Source: Promethearchaeota archaeon
Lineage (GTDB): Archaea > Asgardarchaeota > Lokiarchaeia > Sigyniarchaeales > SOKP01
Length of the DNA: 64,000 nt
Direction: 5' to 3'
NCBI GenBank assembly: GCA_048937405.1
Contig: JBHLNF010000011.1
Coordinates: 1-64,000, forward strand
This document shows, one piece after another, positions 5,130 through 63,310 of the stretch. A model generated the notes under the pieces. That model saw nothing but the letters and a program-made list of their open reading frames with translations, ran no database searches and had not been told where the DNA came from. The position numbers and the translations under genes were made by a program. Every line of letters begins with the position of its first letter. The first letter of the stretch is position 1.

Positions 5130-5848
5130 AAGTTAATCACCAAATTATTTTTTTAATTGATTTATCACTAATTAAATAAAATAAAGATATTTTAATAAAT
5201 ATTATGTGAAATTTAATATTTTTATAGTAATATCATTTTTTTTATTAAAATTTACATATACCTTAAAGAAAGTAATTTCTTTTTTATTATAGAAATCTTT
5301 TATTAACAATTTTTTATATAGAATTTGTATATAAAAATAGCAGATATACAAAAATTTTGGAGAATATGTTGATAATCGAGTGTTAACAAGATGAAATCCA
5401 CAAATGATTCTAATTTTACAGAAAGATTAAATAGGTTTAATGATAGATGACTAAATACATTTAATAGAGCATTTAAACTATTTTTAATTGATAATTATAG
5501 TAGAGTGTATACTCCATACTACCAGAAAGTCAGACAAATTACATTAACCAAGATTTTAGCAAATCGAAGCGAATTAAATTTCTTATCCATTATTTATGGA
5601 AAAACTTTTACATTAAAACTAATATCAATGCGAATAAAATGAAGGTAAATGGAATTCGAAAAAGTATCATTCAGTAAAAATTAAATATTTCAGATTCCTT
5701 ATTTTTTGTACATATCAAGAAAGATACTAAAGCTTATGATGGTTTTGAAAAAAAAGCGAATTATAATTATAAAAAACTCCTATTTGAGAAGAATATGGAA
5801 TAATCTTAGAGTTCTATTGATAGAAGTAAGTGTGAGTGAACAACAAAA

Positions 5849-25787: not shown

Positions 25788-26147
25788 ATGGGAAAAAATA
25801 AATATGGAAAGGGATTTCAAAAAGGATCACAATCAAAAGGAAGAGGTTCTAAAACAGGAGGTGCTCCTATTCGCGGAGGTAAAATTAAAGCTAGTCACAT
25901 TTTAGTAGAAAAATTTACTAAAGCTCAAGAGATTTATGAAGATTTAAAGACAGGTGAAAAATTTGAGGAATTAGCAAGCAATTATTCCACATGTTCGAGT
26001 AAGAAAAGAGGTGGTAATTTAGGTGAATTTGCTAAAGGAGATATGGTTCCAGAGTTCTGGAATGCATGCACGAAGCTGAAAATAGGTGAGATTTCCCAAC
26101 CAGTAAAATCCAAATTTGGATACCATATAATTAAAAGAACTGGTTGA
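25788..26147 (+). CDS. Parvulin-type peptidyl-prolyl isomerase with basic Gly/Lys N-terminal tail
   Basis: ASHILV, FEELA..YS.C.S...GGNLG.F..G.MV.EF, PVKSKFGYHII. Confidence 0.95.
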   Translation: MGKNKYGKGFQKGSQSKGRGSKTGGAPIRGGKIKASHILVEKFTKAQEIYEDLKTGEKFEELASNYSTCSSKKRGGNLGEFAKGDMVPEFWNACTKLKIGEISQPVKSKFGYHIIKRTG

Positions 26148-26153
26148 AAAGAA

Positions 26154-26224
26154 AATCTGAATCCCTTGCGGGGATAATCATCCAATAACTAAAGTTTTTT
26201 TATAGGAATCATTTTTCTCAGATT
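26154..26224 (-). ncRNA. Structured RNA element copy 1 (SECIS/K-turn-like)
   Basis: AATCTGAG/TTCAGATT closing stem; ATGAT-TCCTATAA-AAAAACTTTAG-TTATTGGA-TGAT; ATCCC-CGCAA-GGGAT hairpin; near-identical copy at 26616..26685. Confidence 0.55.
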
Positions 26225-26289
26225 AAGTATAATAAAAATCTTTAATTTTTTTCAGAATTTTTGGTTTGTAATATTTATTCTTTATCTCT

Positions 26290-26490
26290 CTATCCTTCTT
26301 TTACTTCTTTTCTGTAGAATACAATGGAAACTATCGCACCAATATAACAAAATATTGCGGGAATCATTAAATATTCAAATGTCATTCCTCATGATTTTAT
26401 AAAAATAGCGTAGTAAAGAAGAGCAGTACCAATAATTATGAATAAAAAAGTGGCAGTAATAAATATGCTTTTTCGATTGCTATTATCCAT
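26290..26490 (-). CDS. 66-codon two-TM protein with in-frame TGA (candidate selenoprotein, or nonsense pseudogene)
   Basis: MDNSNRKSIFITATFLFIIIGTALLYYAIFIKS-TGA-GMTFEYLMIPAIFCYIGAIVSIVFYRKEVKEG-TAG; AAGGT SD and TTTATAAA box upstream. Confidence 0.5.
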
Positions 26491-26615
26491 TGAATTTTAA
26501 CCTTTACTTTTTATTTATTATGTAATTAGTTTATAAAAATCAATCTTTTCTTTTATATTTAAAGAAGCAATTCTTGATTTTTTCATTACTGTAAATTGTA
26601 AATAAAAGGTAAAAA

Positions 26616-26685
26616 AACTGAATCCCTGACATGGATAATCATCCTATAACTAAGATTTTTTTATAGGAATCATTTTTCTCAAGCC
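26616..26685 (-). ncRNA. Structured RNA element copy 2 (SECIS/K-turn-like)
   Basis: ATGAT-TCCTATAA-AAAAATCTTAG-TTATAGGA-TGAT with a perfect 8-bp stem; ATCC..GGAT hairpin; followed by a T7 run. Confidence 0.55.
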
Positions 26686-26814
26686 ATACCTTGTAGATTC
26701 CCATAATTTCTTGGTATAATTTCTAATTTGTATGATTTATTCTTTTCATTCGAAATTGAATTATAACTACTATTAATATAAAAAGCTATTGCTAAATATT
26801 TAGAAAAGTAGTTT

Positions 26815-26945
26815 TAGCCCAGCACGGAATTTCGATATACGATATATTCGTGAGTTTTTCGAACCGTGGTCCAGGGGTATCTCCAAGATCGTAGATGTTT
26901 GGACTTATCAGGGCCCCCGATGCTTGACCGCTACACCACTGGGCT
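26815..26945 (-). tRNA. tRNA-Gln(CTG) with two 29-nt introns (37/38: 26907-26879; 59/60: 26857-26829)
   Basis: A1-U72 acceptor AGCCCAG/CTGGGCT-A, D-arm GTGTAGCGGTCAAGCAT, T-arm CACGG TTCGAAT CCGTG after splicing; BHB-like junctions at both introns; 73-nt spliced product. Confidence 0.85.
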
Positions 26946-62179: not shown

Positions 62180-63310
62180 TTACTCTTTACTTTCTTCCTT
62201 TTCTTCTTGTTCTTTGTTGAATTCTTCAACCTTCTTCATAACACTTTCAGATGGTGTTTCTGGTAAAGAAATTTTTTCAAAGATTTCTATAAATTTAACA
62301 TCGTCAATTTCATCAGTCATATGTGTTTGTAAATCCATTGCTAACCCGAATTTAACATAAGTTAAATTTTGGAAAAGAAACATTTTTGGAATCGTAATCT
62401 CAAGAGTTTTACTCTTAGGAATATAACTAACTTGAAAATCGGAAATGCTTTCTTTTGGGATTCCTTTATTCATCATAAAATATTCTATCTTTTCATTAAA
62501 GTCTTCAATTTTATCTATTATTTCTAAATTGTAATCGATACTTTGACCTGCTAAAGGATGGTTATAATCAACAATAACTCTTCCTTGCAGAACATTTGTA
62601 ACTGTTCCCCTTTGTGTTTGTCCTTGAGTTTGTTTAACAAATTCTTGTCCTATCTCCGGATTTTTTCCTTCATTCATTCTTCTAAATTTGGCAATACCGA
62701 TTCTTTCAATCTTTTGAGGATCGCGTTTTCCAAAAGCTTTGGTAGGTGGTATTCTAACTGATTTTTTTTCAAAAAAATTCATTCCTTTGACTGTCTCAGT
62801 AAGGCCTTCATTTAAAAATCCTGGTTTGCCCACTATAACAAATTCCGGAGTATAATATCCTTGTTTAGCCTGATTTTCATCATAAATTCCTGCTTTTTTT
62901 GCATCTTCTTCTGAAGAAACTCGAAAAATTTTCCCTTTTTGTGTTCGAGCAGTGATTTTAATGATAACGAAATCTCCTTCTTCAACTTTCTTGCCTTGTA
63001 ATTTTGATTTTTTTTGTTCTAATTTTTTAATCTCTTCTTGAATTTTCTTTTCTTCTTCATCCCCTTCCTTCTTAGTCTGATCAACTTCTTCTTTCTTATT
63101 TGGTTCAGTTTTTCCTTTTTCAGTTTTGCTTTGTATCATTTCTTTAGCATTTTCAATAACTTTTTCGGCTGTAGCTTTCCCAAATCCTTTAAGATCAGTT
63201 AATTCTTCTAATTTTGAGTTTGCTAATTTTTCAACTGTATCAATTCCAGCTTCTTTTAATGTGTCAATCTTTTTGCCTAGACCCTTGATATCTTCTAATT
63301 TAAGAGACAT
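62180..63310 (-). CDS. Long archaeal FKBP-type PPIase with N-terminal helix-hairpin-helix domain
   Basis: IKGLG...LKGFGKATA (HhH), EGDFV.I, IPP.KAFG.RDP, VDYNHPLAG. ATG 63310 preferred to 63424, which overlaps the neighbour. Confidence 0.88.
   Translation of the reverse strand: MSLKLEDIKGLGKKIDTLKEAGIDTVEKLANSKLEELTDLKGFGKATAEKVIENAKEMIQSKTEKGKTEPNKKEEVDQTKKEGDEEEKKIQEEIKKLEQKKSKLQGKKVEEGDFVIIKITARTQKGKIFRVSSEEDAKKAGIYDENQAKQGYYTPEFVIVGKPGFLNEGLTETVKGMNFFEKKSVRIPPTKAFGKRDPQKIERIGIAKFRRMNEGKNPEIGQEFVKQTQGQTQRGTVTNVLQGRVIVDYNHPLAGQSIDYNLEIIDKIEDFNEKIEYFMMNKGIPKESISDFQVSYIPKSKTLEITIPKMFLFQNLTYVKFGLAMDLQTHMTDEIDDVKFIEIFEKISLPETPSESVMKKVEEFNKEQEEKEESKE

Follow-up and report, generated by a model that had tools for sequence, protein, structure and literature searches.

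The described selenoprotein genes of Lokiarchaeia, namely those for HdrA-VhuD, VhuU and Prx-like proteins, combine an in-frame UGA codon with a selenocysteine insertion sequence (SECIS) of the lokiSECIS type, which lies in the 3' untranslated region (UTR) soon after the stop codon (PMC4989117, PMC11227280). The lokiSECIS, also named the Asgard type I eSECIS-like element (PMC4989117; PMC11227280), is defined by an AUGA core, a stem of 9 positions, an 11-nt loop with five leading A and a terminal G after an A, and a GA (PMC4989117). A review of May 2026 counts 11 families of archaeal selenoproteins, all of them soluble proteins that are redox or hydrogenase-related and were found through homology to known families (PMC13188914), and there is no membrane protein in two dedicated surveys (PMC4989117; PMC11227280). 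Here we analyse a stretch of 64,000 nucleotides from a Promethearchaeota archaeon of the order Sigyniarchaeales (contig JBHLNF010000011.1, positions 1 to 64,000; hereafter the window). Like the known genes, a short minus-strand open reading frame (ORF) in it, at 26490-26290, combines an in-frame UGA with a lokiSECIS-like element soon after its stop codon.

We consider it very probable that this ORF is an unannotated selenoprotein gene, in which the UGA of codon 34 is read as selenocysteine (Sec) by means of the lokiSECIS. The sequence evidence indicates that it belongs to a new selenoprotein family within the known lokiSECIS-type decoding system; a full-text literature search returned nothing relevant to this family. 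The window is contig C16 of the source genome (G000; 4.47 Mb in 29 contigs, about 29% G+C). The comparison covered 154 genomes, 54 of the same genus and 100 from 23 other genera of the order.

A putative selenoprotein gene

The features of the locus that bear on this reading are as follows.

26290-26490, minus strand: putative selenoprotein gene of 66 codons plus TAG, supported by homologues, alignment and a predicted membrane hairpin
26389-26391, minus strand: in-frame UGA, codon 34, read here as Sec (invariant alignment column; 25 of 30 loci)
26154-26224, minus strand: SECIS B, the likely working lokiSECIS of the gene (39.4 bits, E-value 7e-5 genome-wide; constrained fold)
26613-26681, minus strand: SECIS A, an orphan lokiSECIS (44.3 bits; perfect core and stem)
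26720-26780, minus strand: remnant of a deleted tandem paralogue ("copy 1"), its last ~18 codons and 3' UTR, with a small frame-breaking deletion
26529-26538, minus strand: TATA-like box some 44 nt upstream of the ATG, read by eye, a presumptive promoter
26140-26153, minus strand: T-runs right after SECIS B, read by eye, a likely archaeal oligo-T terminator

The ORF runs from an ATG at 26490-26488 to a TAG at 26292-26290. Its single in-frame TGA sits in the sequence K-S-U-G-M with a hydrophobic stretch on either side, as the first-pass annotation, made from the letters of the window, had described it. TGA is a normal stop codon in this genome, where it terminates 324 of 2255 long open frames. 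An AAGG motif resembling a Shine-Dalgarno sequence, 10-14 nt upstream of the ATG, is the presumptive ribosome-binding site, and the orthologue in genome G036 is preceded by a like arrangement of TATA box and AAGG. T-runs after the SECIS are also present in homologues. The gene neighbours in the window (a convergent parvulin gene, a tRNA gene and an HD-domain hydrolase) give no clue to function.

The element as the SECIS type of this organism

SECIS B begins 64 nt past the stop codon of the ORF and 177 nt past the UGA. It consists of a lower stem, an A-rich internal loop, the AUGA core (26212-26209), helix II with 8 bp including one U-U mismatch, an apical loop of 11 nt that starts with AAAAA and ends with UAG, and a GA after the stem, with a side hairpin of 5 bp ahead of the lower stem's 3' strand. 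In the constrained fold both the lower stem (7-8 bp) and the side hairpin are intact. The element occupies an orthologous position in G036, G009, G070, G001, G062 and other genomes. The duplication of a ~70-nt element noticed in the first-pass annotation is real: the copies at 26152-26220 and 26613-26681 share 88% identity over 69 nt, and a second repeat of 28 nt (26256-26283 and 26718-26745, 82%) brings the similarity to ~130 nt. Both copies read AUGA-U, 8-bp stem, 11-nt loop of the form AAAAAnnnUAG, stem, U-GA-U. Their apical loops are AAAAAUCUUAG and AAAAACUUUAG, with the first five positions A-rich and a final G after an A. All features of the published lokiSECIS definition are thus present in the elements of the locus (PMC4989117).

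A strict pattern of the element has 7 occurrences in the 4.47-Mb genome, against 0 in a reversed-sequence control, and is therefore more than chance. The occurrences lie 3' of hdrA-vhuD pairs (two), hdrA, a Prx-like gene with a W-U-S-H-C motif and a further small UGA-containing ORF with a GG-U-GC motif, the other two being the copies in the window. A genome-wide blastn search with the element found a single further copy, the vhuD SECIS at C19:204996-205047 (79% across 52 nt), directly 3' of an hdrA-vhuD pair with in-frame TGAs at known Sec positions. The stop codon of that vhuD overlaps its SECIS, the UGA being shared with the AUGA core (C19:205043-205046, minus strand).

We then scored the genome with a covariance model (R1) trained on the hdrA, vhuD and Prx-like (prxL) SECIS of G000 only, and restricted to the fixed-length SECIS core because MAFFT misaligned the full-length elements. 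Nine matches reach at least 38 bits (the three training elements, two more vhuD SECIS, one of vhuU, that of the GG-U-GC ORF, and window copies A and B), and the next scores 23.6 bits. The two copies, at 44.3 bits (A) and 39.4 bits (B), thus score with the SECIS of known genes and above the noise. Scattering of the element through the genome, unlinked to UGA-containing ORFs, had been named at the outset as grounds for rejecting a SECIS; it is not scattered, and all strong matches lie just 3' of UGA-containing ORFs, with SECIS A as the sole exception. Two weak matches in the window that have no UGA-containing ORF upstream, at 5317-5357 (plus strand, 23.6 bits) and 62741-62788 (minus strand, 23.3 bits), were taken as noise.

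The structure is also conserved among relatives. Across 33 distinct aligned elements from G000 and related genomes, AUGA before and GA (rarely AA) after the main stem are maintained. In these 33 elements, in an alignment that was itself fitted to the model, helix II is 96.6% paired and all 8 pairs show double-sided changes; sliding the partners as a control lowers pairing to 30-63% of cells. In constrained folds the SECIS of the family and those of hdrA, vhuD and prxL share a three-part shape: a lower stem, which covaries, a kink-turn (K-turn) hairpin, and a short side hairpin ahead of the lower stem's 3' strand. The Rfam SECIS models gave no match at E-values up to 10 between 24000 and 29000. 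Since the same models fail on the SECIS of known selenoprotein genes of G000 too, Rfam is uninformative here.

Conservation of the UGA and of the frame beyond it

Of the 54 genomes of the genus, 16 gave homologues in six-frame and profile searches; the 100 genomes from the 23 other genera gave none. Among the 30 homologous loci of these 16 genomes the in-frame TGA is kept in 25, and it also occurs in one metagenome contig. The first-pass annotation had proposed the aligned codon as a check, with TGA or Cys in favour of Sec and Trp against it; neither TGG nor Cys is found there in any of the 30 loci. In the alignment of 17 family members no column but that of Sec is invariant, and the next residue is Gly in 16 of 17. 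A SECIS of this type is found within ~10-100 nt 3' of nearly every member with TGA or of an adjacent pair of members. In one subfamily a second site is occupied by U in G007 and by C in G028.

The frame is unbroken across the UGA in the 25 loci and leads to a conserved aromatic(F/Y)-x-x-L-x-I/V-P-A block downstream. The ATG of G000 that stands two codons past the UGA (TGA-GGA-ATG) is missing in most homologues, and no start codon after the UGA is conserved, which removes the reading as two mini-ORFs. Over the ~35 codons downstream of the UGA, the ratio of non-synonymous to synonymous substitution rates (dN/dS) is low in the two most diverged ungapped pairs of members:

G028_a / G007_a: dN 0.081, dS 1.61, dN/dS 0.05
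G028_a / G017: dN 0.245, dS 1.38, dN/dS 0.18

The first pair differs by 18 synonymous and 6 non-synonymous changes. The pair G028_c / G007_c was out of register and was discarded.

The gene is single-copy in some genomes and forms arrays of 3-6 diverged paralogues in others:

G007, C17:12780-14480: paralogue array
G028, C70:123390-125480: paralogue array
G065, C99:63660-65070: paralogue array

Adjacent UGA-containing ORFs in the arrays share one SECIS, and in one array paralogue Sec is replaced by Ser. A gene for a P-loop ATPase of ~240 residues, possibly RadB-like, adjoins all three arrays; only the G028 array was checked on both sides, and there RadA lies on the opposite side. An 'AAA_22/STAND' match had raised a defence-system reading of the arrays. 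This was rejected, the neighbour being a conserved P-loop ATPase, and the arrangement is read as ordinary synteny. Taken together, the searches indicate that the family is fast-evolving and confined to one genus of Lokiarchaeia.

Apparent Trp homologues

Only ten relatives came out of a profile search against 1.84 billion representative proteins, and 6 of them have W at the Sec column. Such entries could mislead any test in which Trp at the site counts against Sec. All six (P0002-P0004, P0007, P0008 and P0010) come from contigs of at most 1.4 kb. The DNA of P0010 (JGI contig Ga0114922_10272968) has TGA at this codon and a lokiSECIS 3' of the gene, and its W is a miscall of TGA under genetic code table 4. 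For four other W relatives, close orthologues in readable genomes have TGA. Of the homologues with Trp, which the first-pass annotation would have counted against its proposal, the only one with readable DNA has TGA. Gene calls on short AT-rich contigs of public metagenomes apparently apply table 4 and so give Trp for the Sec codon; L086:665-883 belongs with these entries.

Sec machinery

The components needed to make and insert Sec, whose presence the first-pass annotation had asked to be confirmed, are all encoded in G000:

C7:230659-231960: SepSecS (474 bits, above cut-off)
C18:246170-247018: SelD with an in-frame TGA (185 bits, above cut-off)
C7:223955-224791: SelB-like factor, full length (231.8 bits against a cut-off of 242)
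C28:261612-262364: PSTK-like kinase, full length (154 bits against a cut-off of 290)
C7:230424-230576, plus strand: tRNA-Sec (UCA), found by blast with the tRNA-Sec of two relatives

SepSecS follows immediately downstream of the tRNA-Sec gene, and the SelB-like gene is ~6 kb away from it. The tRNA-Sec gene has two introns, a D-arm intron of 34 nt and a T-loop intron of 30 nt; once spliced, the RNA of 89 nt folds into a 9/4 cloverleaf (-40.9 kcal/mol). Because of the two introns, it is missed in G000 by RF01852, ARAGORN and descriptor searches alike. An ARAGORN tRNA-Sec candidate at C13:36431 was dismissed, having no Rfam match.

In this genome, which is rated 100% complete, ARAGORN finds only 7 tRNA genes at its default setting and 46 at a lowered threshold, and several tRNAs with introns at non-canonical positions were seen by eye, for example at C7:8384, C29:60636 and C20:35158.

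Origin of the upstream SECIS copy

The first-pass annotation had presented the ORF as flanked by two SECIS-like elements. Both copies are indeed there, but they do not form a functional two-SECIS design. Window positions 26780-25700 are collinear with a stretch of G036 (79% over 1102 nt) in which the order is the 3' end of paralogue 1, SECIS 1, paralogue 2, SECIS 2 and the convergent parvulin gene. The homology ends at 26780, beside an intron-bearing tRNA gene. As the collinearity is broken at this point, the start of paralogue 1 has evidently been lost: the alignment indicates that G000 lacks its first ~190 nt and that SECIS A is its leftover 3' UTR. Among the window ORFs, no UGA-containing one lies between SECIS A and the upstream tRNA gene. 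SECIS A itself has a weakened lower stem and a weakened side hairpin; just downstream of it is a T7 run.

SECIS A is unlikely to be part of the mRNA of the intact gene. We rejected its use as a 5'-UTR SECIS on account of its position upstream of the TATA-like box, the T7 run after it and the collinearity with G036. The tRNA gene, which may mark the rearrangement that removed paralogue 1, is located at window positions 26815-26945 on the minus strand; it has at least 2 introns (anticodon region and T loop) and is missed by ARAGORN and Rfam.

Predicted protein and proposed mechanism

K/R-rich N- and C-terminal tails and a nearly uncharged loop are found in 17 of 17 members, which predicts an N-in/C-in topology. 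AlphaFold2, given the family alignment, predicts a helix at residues 3-32, a loop at 33-41 and a second helix at 42-65 (mean predicted local distance difference test score 74.9), so that Sec34 is predicted to lie at the outer end of helix 1, at its exit from the membrane. A Cys 14 residues past the Sec had also been noticed in the first-pass annotation. It is present as C48, about one turn into the predicted helix 2; it is not a family-wide feature, being Ser or Leu in other subgroups. Pfam gave sub-threshold matches only, to unrelated two-helix families (TMEM230/134, DUF2269, holins), and these identities were rejected.

The mRNA probably extends from ~20 nt before the ATG to the T-runs after 26154. 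In its 3' UTR, the K-turn lokiSECIS would recruit the Sec-specific elongation factor with Sec-tRNA(Sec), and UGA34 would then be decoded as Sec and not as stop, in line with the known role of such elements. The product would be a helical hairpin of 66 residues with both K/R-rich ends in the cytoplasm. Its outer loop of 9 residues would begin with a small residue, Sec and Gly, and would lead into the (I/V)-P-A start of helix 2. The exposed selenol might serve in redox or chalcogen exchange, or bind soft metal(loid)s; this is the weakest step of the proposal. In the subgroup of G000 the selenol may act together with the Cys one turn into helix 2.

One might speculate further that this is a lineage-specific membrane-hairpin family, duplicated time and again, in which Sec is never replaced by Cys, an outer-face selenol doing chemistry that sulfur cannot, and that it is the first such family in prokaryotes; we hold this wider proposal to be doubtful. 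If true, it would mean a surface selenol for uses such as the capture of soft metal(loid)s or extracellular redox exchange with syntrophic partners, and among the integral-membrane selenoproteins of prokaryotes this family would be the first to have no Cys form.

Alternative explanations

Several observations weigh against the selenoprotein reading or its details. No Cys occurs at the main Sec site in the 154 genomes or the 1.84 billion representative proteins. The lack of a Cys homologue is unusual for selenoproteins. Paralogues and relatives without TGA carry Ser, Ala or Pro at the site, the protein lacks a UxxC or CxxU redox motif, and the Cys nearby is variable. Two other pairs of members, again compared over ~35 codons each, have weak dN/dS values downstream of the UGA (0.44 and 0.64). 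The SelB-like and PSTK-like proteins fall below their NCBIfam cut-offs. SECIS B has the U-U mismatch in helix II and a lower R1 score than the orphan SECIS A. Finally, no other member has so short a C-terminal tail as the G000 protein, and the sister gene is deleted, so that the G000 copy could be in the course of being lost.

The absence of a Cys form, the tolerance of Ser, Ala or Pro in paralogues and the lack of a redox motif would also suit a selenium-dependent switch, in which the UGA would be decoded as Sec only in the presence of selenium, so that the gene yields either a one-helix peptide of 33 residues or the 66-residue hairpin and the UGA serves regulation instead of selenol chemistry; by itself, the first half already comprises a whole N-terminal tail and a helix. 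We know of no precedent for such a switch. The (nearly) invariant U-Gly and the conserved small residue beside it suggest a constrained chemical site, and the U/C pair at the second site points to chalcogen chemistry, so we think a switch improbable. It is likewise quite improbable that the family is real and the G000 copy is decaying, the ORF and SECIS B being recent relics that are no longer expressed. The sister copy cut to a 3' stump, the shortest C-terminal tail and the mismatched SECIS B, with the lowest R1 score among the strong matches of G000 bar one vhuD, speak for decay. Yet the ORF is intact with its U, G, I-P-A and A52, promoter-like and terminator-like signals are kept, and SECIS B has preserved both its lower stem and its side hairpin; a single helix II mismatch is also found in the prxL SECIS.

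The remaining alternatives had been raised by the first-pass annotation itself. Were the UGA a true stop, the locus would encode a hydrophobic, type I toxin-like peptide of 33 residues or two mini-ORFs, the second reinitiated at the ATG two codons past the UGA, and the element would be an L7Ae-binding K-turn small RNA (sRNA) with no part in decoding. The TGA-GGA-ATG of G000 is compatible with this, arrays of small hydrophobic peptides resemble toxin or immunity genes, and a K-turn core could bind L7Ae-type proteins. Against it stand the absence of the second ATG from most homologues, two halves that are always in frame in 25 loci, purifying selection downstream of the UGA, and an element identical in kind to that behind hdrA, vhuD, vhuU and prxL. 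The element also lacks C/D boxes: the box C/D test found no D box on its strand, and no Rfam sRNA matches it. We regard a true stop as highly improbable. That a Trp-containing membrane protein has become a pseudogene by a TGG-to-TGA change is scarcely credible: the W at the column in 6 of the 10 database relatives would favour it, but those entries sit on the short contigs described above, the one fetched has TGA and a SECIS, close orthologues of four others have TGA, and one nonsense mutation would not persist in 16 genomes. The proposal of a small unannotated selenoprotein is thus supported by the SECIS match, the conservation of the TGA and the Sec machinery.

Implications

Small lineage-specific selenoproteins of Asgard archaea escape both homology surveys and gene callers, which halt at the UGA or put Trp there under table 4. 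A membrane-embedded family without a Cys form raises the question of the role of selenium in it, and the family is a defined target for selenium labelling or proteomics in Lokiarchaeial enrichments. It also adds ~30 natural lokiSECIS variants with covariation, of use for the origin of eukaryote-like SECIS.

Comparison with known selenoprotein systems

The SECIS of Methanococcales is of the GAA_A bulge type, and fdhA has its SECIS in the 5' UTR. Sec insertion would be directed from an untranslated region there as here, by a different RNA motif. fdhA provides a precedent for an upstream SECIS, whereas SECIS A is better explained by gene deletion. The eukaryotic SECIS (RF00031) resembles the lokiSECIS in its AUGA/GA K-turn core, its apical adenines and its place in the 3' UTR; helix II is shorter here, and there is no Rfam match. 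SELENOK and SELENOS are also small and membrane-anchored, without sequence similarity to this protein. They have one helix, and their Sec is near the C-terminus and cytosolic, unlike the Sec of this family, which is predicted in an outer-face loop between two helices.

A parallel in form is the GG-U-GC ORF of the same genome:

C19:94854-95099 (L027:255-500), plus strand: GG-U-GC one-helix UGA-containing ORF of 81 codons, with a SECIS at C19:95112-95146 (R1, 47.5 bits)

Its predicted protein is likewise a tiny membrane protein with Sec-Gly just outside helix 1 and its own lokiSECIS, and is likewise cut short by gene callers at the UGA. It differs in having one helix and a U-x-C motif, compared with two helices and U-G...I-P-A in this family. 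A link between the two was rejected (hhalign probability 0.2%, 4 aligned columns).

This family is also unrelated to the 11 archaeal selenoprotein families of PMC13188914, none of which is a membrane family. The known lokiSECIS genes share its decoding system. They have, like the locus, a stem of 9 positions (8 Watson-Crick pairs plus U-U) and a loop of 11 nt; the hdrA, vhuD and prxL elements of G000 have the same lower stem and side hairpin, and adjacent UGA genes share a SECIS as they do in the arrays of this family. The products set them apart: the known lokiSECIS proteins are soluble redox enzymes, whereas the members of this family are predicted to be membrane hairpins of 66 residues in G000, often encoded in several copies.

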